This document shows, piece by piece, positions 1 through 9,545 of a DNA stretch of 9,545 nt. The position numbers were made by a program, and so were the translations under genes. Every line of letters starts with the position of its first letter. Within the stretch, counting starts at the first letter, position 1. The DNA is from a virus. Lineage: Duplodnaviria > Heunggongvirae > Uroviricota > Caudoviricetes. The DNA lies in IMG/VR virus record IMGVR_UViG_2778261641_000014, positions 1 through 9,545 of that record; one strand, written 5' to 3'. Under the pieces are notes generated by a model. That model saw nothing but the letters and a program-made list of their open reading frames with translations. It searched no databases and was not told where the DNA came from.

Positions 1-44
1 AGTCTGCAAAGAAACATCAAAGAAATAAACGATAATCCCATCAA

Positions 45-70
45 CCCGGCCACCGAGCCGGGTTTTCTTT
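45..70 (+). terminator. Rho-independent terminator, probably ending an upstream immunity-region transcript
   Basis: Hairpin CCCGGC (45-50) / loop CACCGA / GCCGGG (57-62) followed by TTTTCTTT (63-70). Confidence 0.5.
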
Positions 71-239
71 GCCTCTCGCCCAAAAAAAACACATAACCAA
101 TTGTATTTATTGATGTAACTCGCTAAACCATACAGTTCTGATCCCTGCCGCATAACCTTCATCAGCCACATTTTCAAAAATAAATTTCCTTATATATCAG
201 AATCATACTTCGTAGAGTTAATAAATCACCAAAATTCGT

Positions 240-272
240 ACCAATAGTTCTTGATAATGTCGAACTATTGGT
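240..272. promoter_or_regulatory. Perfect 11-bp-arm inverted repeat; candidate operator (OL-like) or RNA hairpin
   Basis: ACCAATAGTTC (240-250) and its exact reverse complement GAACTATTGGT (262-272), separated by 11 bp. It lies about 80 bp upstream of boxB and overlaps a sigma70-like hexamer pair. Confidence 0.3.
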
Positions 273-279
273 TCATTAT
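251..279 (+). promoter_or_regulatory. Candidate pL-like sigma70 promoter (-35 TTGATA, 17-bp spacer, -10 CATTAT)
   Basis: TTGATA at 251-256 and CATTAT at 274-279 with a 17-bp spacer, embedded in the palindrome and upstream of boxB and the N-like gene. The hexamers are weak and the call rests on position alone. Confidence 0.25.
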
Positions 280-348
280 TATCGTCATCAGCAGGACGCA
301 TTACTCACCATGGCGGTGAATATACAACGATTCAAACATGAATCTACG

Positions 349-363
349 GCGCTGACAAAGCGC
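349..363 (+). promoter_or_regulatory. nutL boxB RNA hairpin (P22-type, GACAA pentaloop)
   Basis: GCGCTGACAAAGCGC is a 5-bp stem with a GACAA loop and matches the phage P22 boxB sequence as I recall it. It sits about 130 nt upstream of an N-like ORF that carries an arginine-rich N-terminus. No clear boxA (CGCTCTTA-like) was found upstream. Confidence 0.7.
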
Positions 364-491
364 AATAACCAAAGTGAACTTTGGGGTGAATGCAGAAGCT
401 AATCTTCTCGGCGGAGGCGCTTTGCAATGATTACGCGACCGGAGTTAGTCGCACGGCTGTATTCACCGCCAAAGTTCATCAGGAGGTCTAT

Positions 492-875
492 ATGACACGC
501 AGAACTCAGTTCAAAGGCAATTCACGTTCTCGTCGTCGTGAGCGTTTAAAGGCAAAGGCATTAGCTAACGGCGTACTGGCCCGCGAAGAAGCAATAAGTT
601 CAGAAGTATTACACCGCCCTACTCTAAGCAGAGCGCAGATTCAGGCTAAAGGTACTCACGAAACGCCTGAGCGCATAGAAGACGCTAAGCCAATTAAGTT
701 CATGGCACAGGACGTGATCTGGCAACAGAAAGAATACAGACGTAATCTGGAGAGAGCGGCCATTGTGTACGCGAATGAGTTTGGACATAAGCAACCAGAA
801 ACTGGTGTATGTCTTCCAAATGTAGCTCTTTACGCAGCAGGCTACCGGAAATCAAAACAACTGACGGCGAGGTAA
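492..875 (+). CDS. N-like transcription antitermination protein (P22 gp24 family)
   Basis: Strong RBS AGGAGG (481-486) 5 nt before ATG 492. Arginine-rich motif NSRSRRRERLKAKA near the N-terminus; C-terminus LPNVALYAAGYRKSKQLTAR closely resembles the P22 gp24 C-terminus as I recall it. The track ORF starting at 390 is a 5' over-extension that would include boxB. Confidence 0.75.
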   Translation: MTRRTQFKGNSRSRRRERLKAKALANGVLAREEAISSEVLHRPTLSRAQIQAKGTHETPERIEDAKPIKFMAQDVIWQQKEYRRNLERAAIVYANEFGHKQPETGVCLPNVALYAAGYRKSKQLTAR

Positions 876-1103
876 GTGGTGAATCAGACATACATTCCAT
901 CATGCTTGAGAAATCTGCCAAAGCAGAAAGCAAAGCCCCGCAAGCAAGCCATAAAGGACGCTAAGTCAGAGGTTATTGATCAAGCAATACAATTGCTCAG
1001 GAAGGAGTTAAGAAGTGGCAAGCTCGAAGGAATGATGATGCCCTATCAGCGCGGATATCTATCGGCGATTAGTAAGTTGGAAGTATTGAAGAGTGAATTA
1101 TGA
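876..1103 (+). CDS. Hypothetical small basic protein (75 aa), immediate-early position
   Basis: ORF beginning at GTG 876 directly after the N-like stop, with GAGGT 866-870 as a possible RBS. Lysine-rich N-terminus. No family recognised. Confidence 0.45.
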   Translation: MVNQTYIPSCLRNLPKQKAKPRKQAIKDAKSEVIDQAIQLLRKELRSGKLEGMMMPYQRGYLSAISKLEVLKSEL

Positions 1104-1167
1104 ACTATCTGGAATTTCCGGATGGTTCATTGTTTTGGCAGCAAACCAATTATTTGAGAGCTGATAC

Positions 1168-1410
1168 ATGAGAGTAAAAACTATGGGCGCAAGCCCATTA
1201 AGCGGTCGTATTTTTCAAGGAACATTAAACACTGAAAAAGGAATGTGGGTAGGAAAGAAAGAAGATGTCACCGATCAAGCAGTTAAGGCAGTAGCCGAAC
1301 ACCTGATGATAAAAGACCAGAAATATGCATACGAAACGAAGGATGGCAAATGGCTGATAATAAGTCATCAACTGGTTGATAAATTACCAGAAGAGTTTGT
1401 TGATGGTTAA
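1168..1410 (+). CDS. Hypothetical protein (80 aa; alternative start at ATG 1183)
   Basis: ORF with a GAGAG motif upstream, lying between the N-like gene and the first intrinsic terminator. No family recognised. Confidence 0.45.
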   Translation: MRVKTMGASPLSGRIFQGTLNTEKGMWVGKKEDVTDQAVKAVAEHLMIKDQKYAYETKDGKWLIISHQLVDKLPEEFVDG

Positions 1411-1448
1411 ATTTGCTTTGGAATAAGCAACAGAATAAACACTGCACT

Positions 1449-1476
1449 GTGTATTCATTCCAACGAGTGAATACAC
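1449..1476. repeat. Perfect 9-bp-arm inverted repeat with 10-nt spacer (function unknown)
   Basis: GTGTATTCA (1449-1457) and TGAATACAC (1468-1476) are exact reverse complements. Located in the intergenic region about 60 bp upstream of the tL1-like terminator. Confidence 0.6.
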
Positions 1477-1538
1477 GGAGCAATGTCGCTCGTAACTAAA
1501 CAGGAGCCGACTTGTTCTGATTGTTGGAAATCTTCTTT

Positions 1539-1565
1539 GCCCTCCAATGTGAGGGCGATTTTTTA
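1539..1565 (+). terminator. Rho-independent terminator (tL1-like, inside the pL operon)
   Basis: GCCCTC (1539-1544) / loop CAATGT / GAGGGC (1551-1556), then GATTTTTTA. In lambdoid phages a terminator at this position is bypassed by N antitermination. Confidence 0.65.
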
Positions 1566-1584
1566 TCTATGAGGATATGAATAG

Positions 1585-1953
1585 ATGTCAAACATCAAAA
1601 AATACATCATTGATTACGACTGGAAAGCATCAATAGAAATTGAAATCGACCATGACGTAATGACAGAGGGAAAACTTCACCAGATTAATAATTTCTGGTC
1701 AGACTCTGAATACCGACTCAATAAACATGGCTCTGTATTAAATGCTGTATTAATCATGCTGGCGCAACATGCTCTGCTTATAGCAATTTCGAAAGACTTA
1801 AATGCATATGGTGTTGTTTGTGAGTTCGACTGGGATGATGGAAATGGTCAGGAAGGATGGCCTCCAATGGATGGTAGTGAAGGAATAAGAATTGCCGATA
1901 TCGATACATCAGGAATATTTGATTCAGATGATATGACTATCAAAGCCGCCTGA
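1585..1953 (+). CDS. Hypothetical strongly acidic protein (122 aa), low-GC gene; candidate anti-restriction / anti-defence (DNA-mimic-like)
   Basis: RBS GAGGA 1571-1575 before ATG 1585. The translation has about 22 Asp/Glu against 9 Lys/Arg, with an Asp-rich C-terminal third. The gene is visibly AT-rich compared with its neighbours and occupies the ral / gene-17 slot between N and cIII. Confidence 0.6.
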   Translation: MSNIKKYIIDYDWKASIEIEIDHDVMTEGKLHQINNFWSDSEYRLNKHGSVLNAVLIMLAQHALLIAISKDLNAYGVVCEFDWDDGNGQEGWPPMDGSEGIRIADIDTSGIFDSDDMTIKAA

Positions 1954-2028
1954 GCGCGGCTTTACCGCATACCAATAATGCTTCACGAGAGGCATTTTCG
2001 TTATGCAATCAAATATAAGGAGTTACCC

Positions 2029-2163
2029 ATGATGCACTTTCAGCTCGCGGGTAGCGGCGTCATGTCCGCTTTCTACCCGCACGAATCTGAATTATCACGC
2101 CGAGTTAAACAATTAATCAGAGCAGCAAAGAAACAACTGGAGGCGTTATGCGCAATGAAATAG
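2029..2163 (+). CDS. cIII-like protein (FtsH inhibitor family), 44 aa
   Basis: RBS AAGGAG 2017-2022 before ATG 2029. The translation MMHFQLAGSGVMSAFYPHESELSRRVKQLIRAAKKQLEAL follows the lambda CIII pattern (M-x-Y/F-x-I/L-AG ... P-x-ES-x-L-x-R) as I recall it. The upstream ATG at 1978 lacks an RBS. Confidence 0.5.
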   Translation: MMHFQLAGSGVMSAFYPHESELSRRVKQLIRAAKKQLEALCAMK

Positions 2164-2300
2164 CCATCAATCACCAGATGCTTCGTGCAGCACAGAACAA
2201 AGCAGTAATAGCCAGATTTATTGGTGATTCAAAAATGTGGCTTGAAGCAAATAAAGCGATGAAATCAGCTATCAACCTTCCGTGGTATCGCAGGAAATGA
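2148..2300 (+). CDS. Small protein (50 aa), tentatively Kil-like cell-division inhibitor
   Basis: ORF not in the supplied track because it is under 60 aa. ATG 2148 is preceded by GGAGG 2139-2143 and overlaps the end of the cIII-like ORF. The translation MRNEIAINHQMLRAAQNKAVIARFIGDSKMWLEANKAMKSAINLPWYRRK contains a FIGD.KM..EA motif that I recall from lambda Kil; this is a memory-based, tentative match. Confidence 0.4.
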   Translation: MRNEIAINHQMLRAAQNKAVIARFIGDSKMWLEANKAMKSAINLPWYRRK

Positions 2301-2467
2301 GCTTTACAGATAACTGGTCAGACGAAGAATTCATTCGTCAGATGAAAGAATTAATCGGTAACGAAGGAGATATTCATGTCACTTGCAACCACAGTGAAGG
2401 AGAGCAAGTTACAGAGACGCATGTACACGCAGCAGGCGTTAATGTATCGCCAGAAGGGAGATCGTGA
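2297..2467 (+). CDS. Hypothetical small acidic protein (56 aa)
   Basis: ATG 2297 overlaps the stop of the preceding ORF (ATGA) and is in the same frame as track ORF 2282-2467. It sits just upstream of erf, where P22 carries arf, but I cannot confirm similarity. Confidence 0.35.
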   Translation: MSFTDNWSDEEFIRQMKELIGNEGDIHVTCNHSEGEQVTETHVHAAGVNVSPEGRS

Positions 2468-2556
2468 AGGTGTTCGCGTATTTTTAAATGCGGCAAAGAC
2501 TGAAGTATTAAATCAGCGTTATTTACTTGGGCCGTGTCCATTCTGAGAACAATCAT

Positions 2557-3162
2557 ATGAGCAAAGAATTTTACGCAAGACTGGCAGCTATTCAGGAGAA
2601 TCTGAACGCGCCAAAGAATCAGTACAACTCATTCGGCAAATATAAATACAGAAGCTGCGAAGACATTCTTGAAGGCGTTAAGCCGTTACTGAATGGCCTG
2701 TTTTTATCAATCAGCGATGAAGTTGTGTTGATTGGTGATCGGTATTACGTGAAAGCCACGGCAACTATTACCGATGGCGAAAACAGTCATACAGCAACCG
2801 CTCTTGCACGAGAGGAAGAAAGCAAGAAAGGAATGGATTCTGCACAAGTTACTGGAGCTACAAGCTCTTATGCACGCAAGTATTGCCTCAATGGTTTGTT
2901 CGGCATTGATGATGCGAAAGATGCAGATACAGACGAGCATAAACATCAGCAGAGCGCAGCAGCAAAGCAATCAAAACCATCACATACACCTGAACAGGTT
3001 CTAAAAGCATTCACTGACGCAGCATTGCAGAAAAACACCGTGGAAGAGCTTAAACAGGCGTTCGCCAAAGCGTGGAAGATGCTCGAAGGCACACCGGAGC
3101 AGCAAAAAGCGCAGGACGTTTACAACATCAGACGAGACGAATTAGAAGGAGCGGCTGCTTAA
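2557..3162 (+). CDS. erf: Erf-family single-strand annealing protein
   Basis: The translation from ATG 2557 (MSKEFYARLAAIQENLNAPKNQYNSFGKYKYRSCEDILEGVKPLL ... YARKYCLNGLFGIDDAKDADTDE) closely matches P22 Erf as I recall it. The track's TTG start at 2527 is probably an over-extension. Confidence 0.85.
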   Translation: MSKEFYARLAAIQENLNAPKNQYNSFGKYKYRSCEDILEGVKPLLNGLFLSISDEVVLIGDRYYVKATATITDGENSHTATALAREEESKKGMDSAQVTGATSSYARKYCLNGLFGIDDAKDADTDEHKHQQSAAAKQSKPSHTPEQVLKAFTDAALQKNTVEELKQAFAKAWKMLEGTPEQQKAQDVYNIRRDELEGAAA

Positions 3163-3545
3163 TGGCACATTCGATTACTGTAAGACTAAACAAGCCCGCA
3201 AGAGAGTTTCAGGCCGGGGAAAATATCGGATTCAACATCCGTGCTGGCGTTCAGTATTACGATCGCCAGACAAAAAAGAAAGAATGGACAAACTACAGCG
3301 CCGTTGTATTTGCCAAGCCGGGAGCGCAAGCGGATTACTACCGTAGTGTTCTTGTTGAAGGAGGCATTGTAGAAATTACCGGAGAAAACATCAGGGTTGA
3401 TGTTTATCAGGGGCAAAATGGTCAATCAATCACTCTTGAATTACTGAATGCAAAGATTGGATTTGCAACTTCAGGAAACAGCCAACAGCAGCAAAGTAGC
3501 AATCATCAAAATCATCCTGAATACGACGATTCAATTCCCTTCTAG
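3162..3545 (+). CDS. ssb: Phage single-stranded DNA-binding protein (SSB-like, OB fold, acidic C-terminal tip)
   Basis: ATG 3162 overlaps the erf stop (TAATG). The translation ends in the canonical SSB tail ...EYDDSIPF (compare E. coli SSB ...DDDIPF) after a Q/N/S-rich linker. The track start at 3072 is an in-frame over-extension. Confidence 0.8.
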   Translation: MAHSITVRLNKPAREFQAGENIGFNIRAGVQYYDRQTKKKEWTNYSAVVFAKPGAQADYYRSVLVEGGIVEITGENIRVDVYQGQNGQSITLELLNAKIGFATSGNSQQQQSSNHQNHPEYDDSIPF

Positions 3546-3568
3546 ATTAGCAAAATAAGGATTCCATT

Positions 3569-3865
3569 ATGCCAGCGCCTCTGTATGGTGCGGATGACCC
3601 GCGCCGCTGTTCCGGCAATTCCGTATCGGAGGTGCTGGATAAATTCAGAAAAAACTACGACCTGATAATGTCGCTACCGCAGGAAACGAAAGAGGAAAAG
3701 GAATTTCGCCACTGTATATGGCTTGCAGAGAAAGAAGAACGCGAGCGAATTTACCAGACATCAATCCGACCATTCCGCAAAGCCACATATACCCACTTCC
3801 CTGAATATATCGACCCGCGCCTGCGTAATTACCGCTCACGCTATGGCGCTATCAGTAATGACTGA
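3569..3865 (+). CDS. Hypothetical protein (98 aa)
   Basis: RBS AAGGA 3557-3561 before ATG 3569. It is the first ORF after ssb. No family recognised. Confidence 0.55.
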
Positions 3866-3875
3866 GGAATTTACC

Positions 3876-4040
3876 ATGAGAGGACTTGCATACAATCCCG
3901 GCATTCTTCCGGCAGAAATGATTATTCGCCAACGCGTAAAGCCAATGCCATCGAGAGAGGAATTGCTTAAGAGAAATAGTTTCGGTTCTGTTAATGACAA
4001 CAGATATCTGAATGCGATGTGGCGGAGTGGGAAAAAATGA
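3876..4040 (+). CDS. Hypothetical small protein (54 aa)
   Basis: RBS GAGGA 3864-3868 before ATG 3876, in frame with track ORF 3723-4040 (which overlaps the previous gene and is probably over-extended). Its stop overlaps the next start (ATGA). Confidence 0.4.
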
Positions 4041-4519
4041 AACAAATGTCACTAATTGAGATGGATGGATTTCTGAAAGGTAAATGCATCCCAAGTGATT
4101 TAAAGGTTAACGAAACAAATGCTGAATATCTGGTGCGTAAGTTCGGTGAACTTGAATCAAAACTAGAAACGGCGTTGCGTGAGTGTCGTTCTGCTGGAAT
4201 CACGATTGATAACCTTGAGGCTAAATGCGCGAAGATGGCTGCTGAAAATACCTCGCTTAAGCAATCTGAGAAGGAATTTAATGACTTTTGTCGTGAGGAG
4301 TTTAGCGAATGGGAAGATGATGTTACTGAAACCCCAGCCACCGATGCTTTCCTGGCTGAAGTACGGGCGCAGGGGGTAGAGATGTACGCAGATAATCTCG
4401 AAAACGGAGCAGATGACGCAGAACGAGGTGGTTTTGATTATGCCGTTAAGTTTCTACGCAGTGAAGCGTCTGGTGTACGTTTGTTCGCCGACCAGCTTCG
4501 CAAAGGAGGCAACCAGTGA
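4037..4519 (+). CDS. Hypothetical coiled-coil protein with acidic C-terminal half (160 aa)
   Basis: ATG 4037 overlaps the upstream stop. The central region ([12 protein letters not shown] ... [23 protein letters not shown]) looks heptad-like. Track ORF 4019-4519 is the same frame with an earlier start. Confidence 0.55.
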
Positions 4520-4815
4520 CTGTATGTCTTATTGATAAACGTCGACGTGGGCAACAAATACCATCTGTTGAAATGCCGAATCACACATGGTTTTGCGTAC
4601 TTGATATCGATGGTATGGATACGTTGATCGACACTCGTCATTACTGCGATACCGCAACAGCTACTCCTGCAAAAGCAAAGAAAATGGCTGCTCTGATAGA
4701 AAACTGGACTCCACCTGATGGTTGGTGCAATGGGAATGATCGAGATTGGCACGAAAAAATGAAGGGCTATATCTGCGATTTCTTACGTAAATGCAACGGA
4801 TTCAGGGTGATGTGA
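4516..4815 (+). CDS. Hypothetical Cys/His/Trp-rich protein (99 aa)
   Basis: GTG 4516 is preceded by AGGAGG 4505-4510 at 5-nt spacing and overlaps the upstream stop (GTGA). No family recognised. Confidence 0.5.
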   Translation: MTVCLIDKRRRGQQIPSVEMPNHTWFCVLDIDGMDTLIDTRHYCDTATATPAKAKKMAALIENWTPPDGWCNGNDRDWHEKMKGYICDFLRKCNGFRVM

Positions 4816-4816
4816 C

Positions 4817-5290
4817 ATGAACAAGATTGACTATCAGGCACTGCGTGAAGCGGCAGAGAAAGCCGGTGAAGATAAGTGGCAGGCTAAAAAAATAAATGGT
4901 GATTTTTTCGTTATTCGTCACGGTAGTTATACAAGACAGCATGGCTACACATCGTATCAACCCATTGCGGAGATTGATTGTAAGCCAGTCCGGGATTTTG
5001 TTGCCAAGGCTAATCCGGCTACCGTGCTGGAATTACTGGATGAACGGGAAAGGAACCAGCAATACATCAAACTCCGCGATCAGGAGAACGAGGAAATTGC
5101 GCTAACGGTAGGGAAACTGCGTGTTGAGCTGGAAGCCGCAGAGAAGCGCATTGCTGAGCTGCAGTTGCGGGAGGTTGTGCTTCCGCAATGCTATAGCATG
5201 TTGCATCGCGTCGATTTTGACGAGCCTTACCACACTGAAATGGTTTACAGCAGCATCAGGTTCTTGAGGCACTGCACAACGCTGGAATAA
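4817..5290 (+). CDS. Ead/Ea22-like family protein (157 aa)
   Basis: N-terminal ...QALREAAEKA... and central coiled-coil ...AAEKRIAELQ... resemble motifs (QALRE, KRIAEL) that I recall from Ead/Ea22-like prophage proteins. It sits in the ea region between the recombination genes and xis. Confidence 0.6.
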   Translation: MNKIDYQALREAAEKAGEDKWQAKKINGDFFVIRHGSYTRQHGYTSYQPIAEIDCKPVRDFVAKANPATVLELLDERERNQQYIKLRDQENEEIALTVGKLRVELEAAEKRIAELQLREVVLPQCYSMLHRVDFDEPYHTEMVYSSIRFLRHCTTLE

Positions 5291-5321
5291 ACGTCACCGA
5301 AGCAGGTAAAGGAGAGGCATC

Positions 5322-5891
5322 ATGAGCACTATTCCCAAAGAACGTCTGGAACAATTAGCATCTGGAAACGCATGGTATTGCGTTCAAGATGACGAAGCGG
5401 CTGAGCTGGCGCGTATCGCGCTGGCATCGCTCGAAGCGGAGCCATATGGATATGTGCATAAAGCGGCATATGAGAAAACAGGCAGTTGCGGGTTGTCGAA
5501 TGACCGTGAAGCCTATCGATACAGTTCAACTCACGTGGCCGTTTACACCGCACCGCCAGCGCCGGTATCTGTGCCTGCTGCGATGGAAATGGATGATGAC
5601 TTTGACAGCGCGTTTGAACACGGAAAAGCTGTCGGATGGAACGCCTGTCGTGCCGCTATGCTTCAGAGTCAAGGTAATTGCATTAAGGATGGTTGGATAA
5701 GCTGTAGTGATCGAATGCCGGAAGACACCAAAATGTTACTGGCATTTAGTCAAGGTGAAATCGTGGCCGCATATTGGAACTGGGTTGTAAATCCAATTGA
5801 TTACAAAAAATATAGAGCTTTCACGTATTTATCAGGAAATATCTTGGATGACGTAACTCACTGGATGCCGCTACCAGAGCCTCCACTTTGA
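5322..5891 (+). CDS. DUF551-like prophage protein (189 aa)
   Basis: RBS AAGGAGAGG 5307-5315 before ATG 5322. The C-terminal region WISCSDRMPEDTK ... VTHWMPLPEPP matches the DUF551 signature as I recall it. Confidence 0.65.
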   Translation: MSTIPKERLEQLASGNAWYCVQDDEAAELARIALASLEAEPYGYVHKAAYEKTGSCGLSNDREAYRYSSTHVAVYTAPPAPVSVPAAMEMDDDFDSAFEHGKAVGWNACRAAMLQSQGNCIKDGWISCSDRMPEDTKMLLAFSQGEIVAAYWNWVVNPIDYKKYRAFTYLSGNILDDVTHWMPLPEPPL

Positions 5892-5987
5892 AAGCGAAGC
5901 TTATACATATCTTTTACATCAGCAATCTATTGTTAATCTCCAATCAATGTTACGTTGTCATCTCACTCATGCTTTGGAGGTAGTGAT

Positions 5988-6167
5988 ATGTCTTGTCCAA
6001 AATGCGGTTCTGGAAATATTGCAAAAGAAAAAACAATGCGTGGATGGTCTGGTGATTATGTGTGCTGCGATTGCGGATACAACGACTCTAAAGACGCATT
6101 TGGAGAGCGTGGTAAAAACGAGTTTGTCAAAATTAATAAAGATCGCGAAGGCAACGGAAAAAGCTAA
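5988..6167 (+). CDS. Zinc-ribbon miniprotein (60 aa; two CxxC pairs)
   Basis: RBS GGAGG 5976-5980 before ATG 5988. The translation is MSCPKCGSG ... CCDCGY, with a lysine-rich tail. Track ORF 5955-6167 is the same frame with an upstream start. Confidence 0.5.
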   Translation: MSCPKCGSGNIAKEKTMRGWSGDYVCCDCGYNDSKDAFGERGKNEFVKINKDREGNGKS

Positions 6168-6230
6168 TTTATTTATTCATATATGAAAACAATGTAACCA
6201 ATATTCGATTTGAAGAACTGAAAGAACACC

Positions 6231-6254
6231 AAGCCGCCTGATGGCGGTTTTTTT
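6231..6254 (+). terminator. Rho-independent terminator
   Basis: AAGCCGCC / loop TGAT / GGCGGTT followed by a run of 7 T residues (6248-6254). Confidence 0.7.
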
Positions 6255-6268
6255 ATTGGAGACAAGAA

Positions 6269-6613
6269 ATGTCAGATTTGGCTATGAAGGTTTTGAAATG
6301 GCAATCGACTGGCGATGTTGGCATCAGTAGCGCAACTCTTGCCTCAATCGCATGTGGACTGAAAAAGAATATCTATGGTCATAGCTTCGGTGCTCCACAT
6401 GACGCAGCAGATTTCCGACGATGCGTTGCGCTTGTCGAGCAGATTCCAGAAATCAGGGATTCATTCGACAAGGTTGCAAAGCGCGTTCCGGCATTCAAAG
6501 GCATCCTCAACGAATGGGATTCTCTCGTTGCTCTGTTGAAGTCTGAAATGAAGATACACGGAAACAAAGCACCAGAGACTTACAGAAGAATTAGCGAGTT
6601 ACGCAAGGACTAA
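6269..6613 (+). CDS. Hypothetical protein (114 aa) immediately upstream of xis
   Basis: RBS GGAGA 6257-6261 before ATG 6269. It lies between a strong terminator and the excisionase gene. No family recognised. Confidence 0.55.
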   Translation: MSDLAMKVLKWQSTGDVGISSATLASIACGLKKNIYGHSFGAPHDAADFRRCVALVEQIPEIRDSFDKVAKRVPAFKGILNEWDSLVALLKSEMKIHGNKAPETYRRISELRKD

Positions 6614-6702
6614 CCACAGCCTCACACTCGATGAGGCCTGTTCATTTCTCAAGATATCCAGACCTACCGCAATAATACCAACTCAATAAATGGAGATTCC
6701 AA

Positions 6703-7050
6703 GTGGAAGAAGAAATCTTCACTCGTGAAGAGGCAGCATCGTATCTGAAGGTAGACAAAGGCACTATCACGCAGTGGATACGAAGTGGACGACTTCAGGC
6801 CGCAAAGATAAATCCAGATAAACCTAAAAGTCCATATCGCATTTGCAAGTCAGACTGCATTGCGGCGCTTAAGTCTGTGAGACACAATAGCGCGGTGAAT
6901 GCGGTTGATGTGCAGGAGGTTAAAGCATGTCAATCAAACTACGCGGTGGCACGTGGCACTGTGATTTCGTCGCGCCAGATGGATCAAGAGTTAGACGCTC
7001 TCTTGAAACATCGGACAAAAGGCAAGCGCAAGAACTTCACGATCGTCTGA
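6703..7050 (+). CDS. xis: Excisionase (HTH-type Xis / AlpA-like DNA-binding domain), overlapping int
   Basis: GTG 6703 with TGGAGA upstream. The N-terminal FTREEAASYLKVDKGTITQWIRSGRLQAAKI is a typical excisionase helix-turn-helix. The ORF runs 124 nt into int in another frame, as is usual for lambdoid xis-int pairs; the true 3' end is uncertain. Confidence 0.6.
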   Translation: MEEEIFTREEAASYLKVDKGTITQWIRSGRLQAAKINPDKPKSPYRICKSDCIAALKSVRHNSAVNAVDVQEVKACQSNYAVARGTVISSRQMDQELDALLKHRTKGKRKNFTIV

Positions 7051-8087
7051 AAGCAGAAGCGTGGAGAGTAAAAAATCTCGGGGAATCACCGAAAAAGCTA
7101 TTCAAGGAAGCCTGCATACGGTGGCTGCGTGAGAAATCGGATAAGAAGTCCATTGATGATGACAAGAGCATTATATCGTTCTGGATGTTGCACTTCAGAG
7201 AAACCATTCTCTCTGACATAACAACAGAAAAAATAATGGAGGCGGTAGACGGGATGGAAAACCGCCGCCATCGCCTGAACTGGGAGATGAGCCGGGACAG
7301 GTGTTTGCGGCTTGGCAAGCCAGTGCCGGAGTATAAACCAAAGCTTGCAAGCAAAGGAACGAAGACGAGGCATCTGGCAATACTTCGCGCCATTCTCAAT
7401 ATGGCTGTTGAATGGGGATGGCTTGACAGGGCACCCAAAATATCAACACCACGCGTTAAGAATGGACGCATCAGATGGCTTACAGAGGAGGAATCGAAGC
7501 GCCTGTTTGCAGAAATTGCTCCTCATTTCTTCCCTGTGGTCATGTTTGCAATCACGACAGGCCTTCGCCGTTCCAACGTTACAGACCTTGAGTGGTCACA
7601 GGTCGATCTGGATAAGAAAATGGCATGGATGCACCCTGATGAAACAAAAGCTGGCAATGCGATCGGAGTTCCTCTTAACGAAACCGCATGCCAGATATTA
7701 AGAAAACAGCAGGGGCTCCATAAGAGATGGGTATTTGTCCACACCAAACCTGCCTACCGAAGCGACGGAACAAAAACAGCAGCGGTAAGGAAGATGAGAA
7801 CCGACAGCAACAAGGCATGGAAGGGAGCGTTAAAGCGGGCAGGCATTAGCAACTTCCGCTTCCATGACCTGAGGCATACCTGGGCAAGCTGGCTGGTTCA
7901 GTCCGGTGTCTCTCTTCTTGCACTTAAAGAGATGGGAGGATGGGAAACTCTCGAAATGGTTCAAAGATACGCCCACCTTTCAGCCGGGCATCTCACCGAG
8001 CACGCGAGCAAAATCGATGCGATTATAAGTCGCAATGGCACAAATACGGCACAAGAGGAGAACGTAGTTTACTTAAATGTGAGGTAA
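6927..8087 (+). CDS. int: Tyrosine site-specific integrase (P22 Int / DLP12 IntD family), 386 aa
   Basis: Strong RBS AGGAGG 6914-6919 before ATG 6927. Catalytic-domain motifs TGLRRSN ... HDLRHTWASWLVQSGV ... LKEMGGWETLEMVQRYAHL fit the R...HxxR...Y pattern. The gene ends 14 bp before the tRNA 3' end. Confidence 0.9.
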   Translation: MSIKLRGGTWHCDFVAPDGSRVRRSLETSDKRQAQELHDRLKAEAWRVKNLGESPKKLFKEACIRWLREKSDKKSIDDDKSIISFWMLHFRETILSDITTEKIMEAVDGMENRRHRLNWEMSRDRCLRLGKPVPEYKPKLASKGTKTRHLAILRAILNMAVEWGWLDRAPKISTPRVKNGRIRWLTEEESKRLFAEIAPHFFPVVMFAITTGLRRSNVTDLEWSQVDLDKKMAWMHPDETKAGNAIGVPLNETACQILRKQQGLHKRWVFVHTKPAYRSDGTKTAAVRKMRTDSNKAWKGALKRAGISNFRFHDLRHTWASWLVQSGVSLLALKEMGGWETLEMVQRYAHLSAGHLTEHASKIDAIISRNGTNTAQEENVVYLNVR

Positions 8088-8101
8088 CTTATTGATTTAA
8101 A

Positions 8102-8177
8102 TGGTGCCGATAATAGGAGTCGAACCTACGACCTTCGCATTACGAATGCGCTGCTCTACCAACTGAGCTATATCGGC
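8102..8177 (-). tRNA. thrW: tRNA-Thr (anticodon CGU), thrW-type; prophage attachment site
   Basis: The reverse complement of 8102-8177 folds as a cloverleaf: acceptor GCCGATA, D-arm GCTC/GAGC, anticodon loop TTCGTAA (anticodon CGT), T-arm GGTTCGACTCC, 3' ACCA. 76 nt, matching E. coli thrW as I recall it. Confidence 0.9.
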
Positions 8178-8291: not shown

Positions 8292-9545
8292 TTACGCACG
8301 AATGGTGTAATCACCAATGCCGATCCACTTGTAAGTGGTCAGTGCTTCCAGCCCCATTGGGCCACGCGCGTGGAGTTTTTGTGTGCTTACCGCCACTTCC
8401 GCACCCAGACCAAACTGGCCGCCGTCGGTAAAACGCGTAGAGGCGTTAACGTAAACAGCGGACGAATCCACTTCGTTAACAAAACGCTGGGCGTTGCGCA
8501 TATCGCGGGTCAGGATCGCATCGGAGTGTTGTGTGCCGTGTTCACGAATATGGGCGATGGCATCGTCAAGATCGCTGACGATTTTGACGTTCAAATCTAA
8601 TGACAGAAACTCATCGTCATACTCTTCGGCTTTAACAGCAACCACCTTCGCAGGGCCTGCCTGCAACTGCGCCAGTGCAGCTGCATCTGCGTGTAATGTC
8701 ACGCCGCTTTCCGCCATTTGTTTGCTTAATGCGGGCAGGAAGCTATCGGCGATGTTTTTATTCACCAGCAACGTTTCAACCGTATTACATGTGCTCGGAC
8801 GCTGAGTTTTCGCGTTGACGATCACTTTTAATGCTTCAGCGATCTCTACACTTTCATCAACGTAAATATGGCATACGCCTATACCACCTGTGATCACCGG
8901 GATTGTCGACTGTTCACGGCACAGTTTATGCAAACCAGCGCCACCACGCGGGATCAGCATGTCGATGTATTTATCCATACGCAGCATTTCACTGACCAGC
9001 GCACGGTCAGGATTATCAATCGCCTGCACGGCACCCGCCGGTAAGCCGCAGGATTTCAGGGCGTCCTGAATCACCGCCACCGTTGCAGCGTTAGTGCGAC
9101 ACGTTTCTTTGCCACCGCGCAGGATCACCGCATTACCGGTTTTCAGGCACAGCGAAGCGACATCAACCGTCACGTTCGGGCGCGCTTCATAAATCACGCC
9201 AATAACCCCCAGCGGTACGCGACGACGCTCAAGACGCAGGCCGCTGTCCAGTACGCTGCCATCGATTACCTGCCCCACCGGATCGGCGAGGTTACACACC
9301 TGGCGCACATCATCGGCAATGCCTTTCAGCCGTGCGGGCGTCAGTGCCAGACGGTCAAGCATCGCTTCGCCAAGGCCATTGGCACGCGCGTCAGCAACAT
9401 CCTGGGCGTTAGCGTTGAGGATGATTTCGCTTTGTGCTTCCAGTTCATCGGCGATTTTTTCCAGCACGCGATTTTTTTCGCGGCTGGAGAGTTGCGCTAA
9501 TTTATACGAGGCTTGCTTCGCGGCAATGCCCATTTGTTCCAGCAT
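8292..9545 (-). CDS. proA: Gamma-glutamyl phosphate reductase (glutamate-5-semialdehyde dehydrogenase), complete, 417 aa
   Basis: Full-length minus-strand ORF whose translation ([38 protein letters not shown] ... [12 protein letters not shown]) is recognisable as E. coli ProA. The start codon is the last three bases of the window. Confidence 0.95.

Follow-up and report, generated by a model that had tools for sequence, protein, structure and literature searches.

What a lambdoid phage gains from the small, strongly acidic protein encoded directly upstream of its cIII gene is the question raised by an open reading frame (ORF) at positions 1585–1953 (+ strand) of the DNA analysed here, the first 9,545 nt of IMG/VR virus record IMGVR_UViG_2778261641_000014 (hereafter the window). 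The window covers the early-left arm of a prophage of lambdoid type in Escherichia coli, inserted at tRNA-Thr(CGT) beside proA. The original prediction, made from the sequence alone, was that the product, of a family it did not recognize, might be a DNA mimic of the Ocr or ArdA type directed against host defence. We identify the gene as ea10 of bacteriophage lambda, whose product belongs to the DUF2528 family. As a sequence feature, ea10 is already known, very common and ordinary; what is new is the breadth of the family, which occurs in both lambdoid and Mu-like phages, its family-wide acidity together with an EGWxxMDGSxGI loop, and the mosaic nature of the slot upstream of cIII.

Ea10 is an abundant early protein of lambda that was formerly mistaken for the kil product (PMC3961180). 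Genome-wide CRISPR interference, in which it appears under the name 'DUF2528 family protein', found its gene non-essential (PMC10695390). The gene also tolerates insertion of IS10 (PMC2327257), and in the two-hybrid map of lambda the protein takes part in a single interaction (PMC3224144). Its role has been termed 'not fully understood' in published work, and the searchable literature yielded no functional study of Ea10 or of DUF2528, nor any that links either of them to anti-defence. The papers that surfaced on the cell-cycle effect on the host described by Sergueev et al. deal mainly with the exo-xis region, and ea10 is named in none of the titles or abstracts listed.

Results

Identity and composition of the ea10 product

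The ORF runs from an ATG start to a TGA stop, encodes 122 amino acids and is preceded by the Shine–Dalgarno sequence GAGGA (1571–1575, + strand), read directly from the sequence 9 nt 5' of the ATG and identical in lambda. Its product matches Pfam DUF2528 (PF10800) over the entire profile (positions 1–104 of 104; 155.1 bits, cut-off 22; E 9e-46) and phrog_646 from end to end (positions 1–122 of 122; E 3.9e-69). Indeed, 118 of the 122 residues are identical to those of lambda Ea10 (NP_040621; lambda 33536–33904, genome NC_001416; gene ea10, alias 'ssb' or lambdap45), a protein of equal length, the substitutions from window to lambda being G29E, K70S, D84N and A104T. The motifs EIDH(D), INNFW and EGWPPMDGSEGI, which are conserved in alignments of the family, are all present in the window protein. 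At the DNA level the gene is 95–99% identical to sequences in 202 phage records, including those of lambda, 434, 21, mEpX2 and many Stx phages, in which it is annotated as Ea10, 'ssb' or hypothetical protein. We regard its identification as the lambda ea10 gene as practically certain, and the family that the original prediction had left unnamed is DUF2528. The ORF is a real gene and not a chance reading frame, since it is 97% identical to a detected lambda protein and belongs to a family conserved down to 25% identity. Lambda ea10 was also encountered, at 96.7% protein identity and lambda-like coordinates, in the 48,361 bp record MW057783.1, 'Campylobacter phage CJLB-4', which is apparently a lambda genome, or contamination by lambda, filed under the name of a Campylobacter phage.

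The composition of the product is exactly that claimed for it, namely 22 acidic residues (15 D and 7 E) against nine basic ones (7 K and 2 R); its isoelectric point (pI) is 4.35 and its net charge −13. The acidic C-terminal third described earlier was likewise confirmed, with 11 D/E against 2 K/R in residues 82–122. The gene had also been singled out as AT-rich and, at 38.2% G+C against 45.0% for the prophage part (1–8100) and 46.3% for the whole window, it is; however, this is not specific to the ORF, because the entire interval 1050–1950 lies at 37–40% G+C. Four of the 18 prophage proteins of the window, the ea10 product included, have a pI below 4.7. Nor is acidity alone discriminating here, because ORF 4019–4519 (166 amino acids, pI 4.56, net charge −13, no Pfam match) encodes a protein about as acidic as Ea10; this protein may correspond to a 'coiled-coil domain-containing protein' or 'cell envelope biogenesis protein TolA' annotated under the aligned region in related E. 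coli genomes.

Breadth and conservation of the DUF2528 family

An exhaustive profile search returned at least 589 clusters (50% identity) at E≤1e-3, while a search for relatives limited by exact words returned 116 clusters, mostly from Enterobacterales. The best-scoring 150 of the 589 clusters were all small proteins in which one DUF2528 stretch accounted for the match, and the full-length members among these 150 were nearly all of about 115–135 amino acids; longer members of the family (152–217 amino acids) carried no second Pfam domain. Two proteins (P0027 and P0115) were chimeras of the N-terminal part of Ea10 with Gam (PF06064) or Kil (PF06301), and probably arose through in-frame deletions during prophage decay rather than as functional fusion proteins.

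Conservation was assessed in 119 members with 25–52% identity to the window protein. Net charge has a median of −13 among them (from −21 to −4), 98% have a pI below 5, and acidic residues make up at least 60% of each of 11 alignment columns. Conservation is strongest in the loop E90-G91-W92-x-x-M-D96-G97-S98-x-G100-I, where E90, G91, D96, G97 and G100 are near-invariant; residues conserved in at least 70% of members are Y7, D22, N35, F37, W38, R44, F81, E90, W92, D96 and S98. Judged from these alignments, the family retains a negatively charged surface as well as a specific site in which polar and aromatic residues abound.

All ten of the DUF2528 places inspected were phage early regions. In a Rosenbergiella lambdoid prophage the gene comes right after N, beside a DUF7446 gene, and in a Serratia prophage it belongs to the early-left operon, ahead of genes for a PDDEXK nuclease, an Enc34 single-stranded DNA (ssDNA)-binding protein, a Band_7 protein and PolA. 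On a contig of virulent type it directly follows the DNA polymerase A gene, with stop and start overlapping. In Mu-like elements (from Salmonella, Oceanobacter and metagenomes, and Burkholderia phage BcepMu, where the product is gp03) it is found between MuB and GemA/Mor, in the Salmonella loci also near Mu Gam and in BcepMu next to an HU-like gene.

Predicted structure

The AlphaFold2 model, built from a 61-sequence alignment, has a mean predicted local distance difference test score (pLDDT) of 94.6 and a predicted template-modelling score of 0.86, with no segment below a pLDDT of 50. Its elements follow the order b-b-a-a-a-a-b (strands 4–11 and 15–22; helices 28–37, 41–48, 51–70 and 74–79; strand 101–107). 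Because the model is folded throughout, the acidic C-terminal third would be part of the folded domain and not a disordered tail. A reading of the segment FDSDDM as a mimic of the tail of ssDNA-binding protein (SSB) was rejected, as the segment is not C-terminal and belongs to the fold. The very hydrophobic helix 51–70 (VLNAVLIMLAQHALLIAISK) was considered as a transmembrane segment, which was rejected too: the helix is amphipathic in the wider family and is a buried core helix in the model (pLDDT 96–98).

Searches with the sequence, the profile and the model gave no relative of established function. The best Foldseek match in the PDB had an E value of 2.3, and searches of PDB sequences with the single sequence (phmmer) and with a 120-sequence profile (hmmsearch) returned noise only; the BFVD held one unnamed viral protein of 121 amino acids (E 1e-5, template-modelling score 0.69). 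A comparison against Pfam with hmmscan at E≤10 gave DUF2528 and one noise match and nothing else, and neither PADLOC nor NCBIfam matched the product. The original prediction had proposed a search of an AlphaFold model for DNA-mimic folds (Ocr, ArdA, Gam), and Foldseek matched none of these to the model; indeed, no known DNA mimic, OB-fold SSB or nucleotide sponge was matched in the sequence, profile or fold searches, so that a DNA-mimic fold of the Ocr or ArdA type finds no support in sequence or structure. Ea10 is confidently predicted to be a compact alpha/beta protein without a known relative.

The LPR1–ea10 module and the slot upstream of cIII

Directly upstream of ea10 a terminator scan located an intrinsic terminator at 1537–1564 (+ strand), with an 8 bp GC-rich stem, a 6 nt loop and a run of six T residues. 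A terminator had been noted at this place and the hairpin with its T-run is indeed there, but it had been likened to tL1 and is instead tL2a of lambda, from which it differs by a single loop base. In lambda, LPR1, a small RNA that is bound by Hfq, lies 'between ea10 and ral' and has species of ~88 nt and ~68 nt, has tL2a as its 3' end (bioRxiv 10.1101/2024.10.31.621285). The LPR1 homologue of the window accordingly occupies approximately 1477–1564 (+ strand; ~88 nt, reaching to the T-run of tL2a), with a 5' end placed solely by the published length. The stretch 1431–1584 is near-identical to that between ral and ea10 in lambda, and Rfam has no curated family over the LPR1 region. Since ea10 is part of the pL early-left operon and follows tL2a, its expression is expected only after N antitermination.

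Comparison of the window with lambda 31000–36500 by blastn delimited a mosaic module of 615 bp (1417–2031, + strand) that comprises LPR1/tL2a, ea10 and the ea10–cIII spacer, has 94.8% identity to lambda 33461–34072, and in lambda extends from just after ral up to the start of cIII. Outside it, neither flank matches the lambda region, except for 71 nt at window 43–113. LPR1 and ea10 thus travel together as one mosaic module, which 2250 of the 5426 complete E. coli genomes (41%) carry, at up to six places per genome.

As had been stated, ea10 lies between an N-like gene (390/492–875, + strand; Pfam N_peptide) and cIII (2008–2163, + strand). The interval from the N-like gene to tL2a holds two ORFs, orf75 (876–1103, + strand; basic product, phrog_5305) and a gene for a DUF7446 protein of 80 amino acids (1168–1410, + strand; phrog_1578), which replace the sieB-orf28-ral genes of lambda. 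The analogy drawn earlier with the slot of ral and of P22 gene 17 was therefore correct in position for gene 17, which is directly upstream of c3 in P22, but not for ral, whose slot is filled by these two ORFs. The pairing of DUF7446 and DUF2528 genes in both this window and the Rosenbergiella prophage may represent a recurrent linkage.

Among phages that share the cIII-kil allele of the window, the gene directly upstream of cIII varies: it is ea10 in the window and in mEpX2, gp45 (phrog_1636) in HK97, and in HK446 and Kapi1 a gene for an 82-amino-acid 'anti-restriction protein' (phrog_14587), a label that is an annotation only. Lambda and P22 have cIII alleles different from that of the window, and carry ea10 and gene 17, respectively, in the slot. 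The slot directly upstream of cIII is a mosaic one.

Other features of the prophage

Downstream of cIII are kil (2148–2300), an arf-like gene (2282–2467), erf (2527–3162), an SSB-like ORF (3162–3545), abc2 (3569–3865), several ea-type genes (about 4000–6600), a gene for an excisionase-like helix-turn-helix protein (HTH_17; 6703–7050) and a tyrosine integrase gene (6927–8087), all on the + strand; these last two overlap by 124 nt. The − strand carries tRNA-Thr(CGT) (8102–8177) and proA (8292–9545), and the prophage thus combines arf-erf-abc2 genes of P22/HK97 type with a tyrosine integrase at a site that we take to be thrW, the attachment site of P22-type integrases. The SSB-like ORF, directly after erf, encodes 127 amino acids ending in ...PEYDDSIPF; it has no Pfam match but bears the canonical SSB C-terminal tail DDSIPF and is probably the real SSB of the prophage. 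An ORF stands at the equivalent place after erf in HK97 (gp40) and HK446, a likeness of position. ORF 5955–6167 encodes 70 amino acids with a CxxC...CxxC zinc finger. Its Pfam match to the Lar restriction alleviation protein stays below threshold (22.5 bits, cut-off 28.6), and it is the second anti-restriction candidate of the window.

Discussion

Our current working hypothesis, to which we give appreciably less than an even chance, is that Ea10 is a counter-defence decoy that works stoichiometrically against a factor of the host or of a resident prophage that handles nucleic acid. On this hypothesis a compact, soluble and strongly acidic alpha/beta protein, made in quantity, would bind and block a host protein whose normal business is with nucleic acid, the most likely target being a defence or exclusion factor of host or resident-prophage origin. 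Binding would be through the conserved negative surface together with the conserved loop E90-G-W-P-P-M-D96-G-S-x-G100, and would make no use of a DNA-shaped fold of the Ocr or ArdA type, although mimicry by a new fold is possible. Such a role is plausible because acidity is conserved in the family and because the slot is mosaic and in P22 holds gene 17, a counter-exclusion gene. The support for an anti-defence role is circumstantial, and several points weigh against it. The searchable literature contains no experiment that ties Ea10 to any defence system, and our searches found no similarity in sequence or fold to a known anti-defence protein or DNA mimic. The positional argument is one of guilt by association, as phrog_14587 owes its anti-restriction label to annotation only and HK97 gp45 has no known function. 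The acidity is moderate, and three further proteins of the window have a pI below 4.7. Some DUF2528 genes lie inside replication or recombination modules, after DNA polymerase A or before PDDEXK and Enc34 genes, and a role in DNA metabolism therefore fits these locations at least as well. Finally, the seven conserved polar residues and the conserved aromatic ones could equally be explained by a small-molecule pocket.

It is these locations that give substance to the possibility that Ea10 is an accessory for phage DNA replication, recombination or host takeover, binding a host replication, repair or nucleoid protein, perhaps in concert with LPR1, which is reported to raise translation of dnaN. 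LPR1 and ea10 travel as one 615 bp module, the LPR1 paper notes conservation that reaches into adjacent genes, ea10 of lambda belongs to the same operon as gam-bet-exo, and DUF2528 genes occur after DNA polymerase A, before PDDEXK, Enc34 and PolA, and, in BcepMu, between MuB and GemA by the HU-like gene. However, ea10 is dispensable for plaque formation, no interaction with replication proteins is reported, the lambda two-hybrid map lists Ea10 in a single interaction, and the C terminus, which ends in TIKAA and is not conserved, has no clamp-binding or SSB-tail motif; on balance we consider an accessory of this kind rather unlikely. The conserved residues lend themselves to another explanation, in which Ea10 binds or destroys a small molecule within a pocket of conserved polar and aromatic residues, either soaking up an immune signalling nucleotide as a sponge or acting as a small metal-dependent enzyme. 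Conservation of 11 residues in at least 70% of members at 25–52% identity is unusually specific for a purely electrostatic mimic, high abundance would suit a stoichiometric sponge, and Ea10 is small, early and single-domain. The searches described above matched no known nucleotide sponge, and we judge this explanation improbable.

Two further readings derive from annotation and from the neighbourhood. Ea10 is labelled an SSB in the records of phages 21, 434, 933W and SfI, of BcepMu gp03 and of others, and in the lambda gene table of PMC3224144, yet that Ea10 is a true SSB is very improbable. A pI of 4.35 and a net charge of −13 are against it, as is a predicted alpha/beta fold with only three strands, which is not an OB fold; no solved SSB was matched by sequence, profile or fold, and no SSB family of Pfam was matched at E≤10. 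The protein ends in ...FDSDDMTIKAA, a terminus that is not conserved and lacks the (D)DD-IPF tail, whereas the prophage already encodes an SSB-like protein with DDSIPF at 3162–3545, and the searchable literature holds no primary evidence of ssDNA binding by Ea10. The 'ssDNA-binding protein' annotation is not supported. That Ea10 might modulate lysogeny, as an SPFH-like soluble domain acting on FtsH/HflKC with the neighbouring cIII, was prompted by a top match to HflC and by the cIII gene itself, and was rejected as the leading explanation. The match to HflC is a marginal one, Ea10 lacks an export signal, whereas SPFH/HflKC domains are periplasmic, its 122 residues are all taken up by the globular fold of the model with no N-terminal hydrophobic segment, Foldseek gave no PDB match better than E 2.3, and most homologues are in phages with no cIII called adjacent; we think a role of this type scarcely credible. 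The remaining probability we leave to readings other than those set out here.

To return to the decoy, it is interesting to speculate more widely, if doubtfully, that DUF2528/Ea10 is an unrecognized counter-defence family with a new fold, common to lambdoid and Mu-like phages, whose acidic surface and EGWxxMDGSxGI loop would neutralize a nucleic-acid-handling defence factor of the host or of a prophage. If this were so, one of the abundant early proteins of lambda would at last have a function, a widespread new family of counter-defence proteins would have been recognized, and the 'ssDNA-binding protein' label that has been copied through many phage annotations would be corrected. Any account of Ea10 is now constrained by a compact predicted fold without relatives, by the conserved acidity and loop, by a distribution much wider than the exact-word search had indicated, which includes Mu-like phages of Burkholderia, Salmonella and Oceanobacter, and by a slot held in common with P22 gene 17.

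Comparison with known systems places these constraints in context. The window and lambda share tL2a/LPR1, the Shine–Dalgarno sequence and ea10 directly before cIII in the pL operon, but differ in the N allele, in the genes between N and tL2a (orf75 and the DUF7446 gene in the window, sieB-orf28-ral in lambda) and in the recombination module, which is arf-erf-SSB-like-abc2 in the window and gam-bet-exo in lambda. Ocr (T7 gp0.3) and ArdA are small, acidic, early and abundant proteins, as is Ea10, the net charge of which is about half that of Ocr. They are elongated, DNA-shaped and helical, whereas the alpha/beta model of Ea10 is compact and has its hydrophobic helix buried. The SPFH (Band 7) domains of HflC, stomatin and the like come with a membrane anchor and an oligomerizing coiled coil; Ea10 has neither, and gave no sequence signal for such a domain. 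Among Mu-like phages, BcepMu gp03 and other DUF2528 proteins resemble Ea10 in size and in their early-region location, with 32–34% identity over 98% of the length (tblastn), although, unlike the window, the Mu-like DUF2528 loci have no cIII, kil or N genes called adjacent. With P22 the likeness is one of place: no homology was detected between Ea10 and P22 gp17 (BLASTP E 3; hhalign probability 0.2%), a protein of another family (PF17420 GP17, phrog_1510) that at 103 amino acids is similarly small, yet the gene order 17-c3-kil-arf-erf in P22 is paralleled by ea10-cIII-kil-arf-erf in the window. The record of P22 notes that gene 17 permits growth on a Fels-2 lysogen, a countermeasure to exclusion, whether by host or by prophage.
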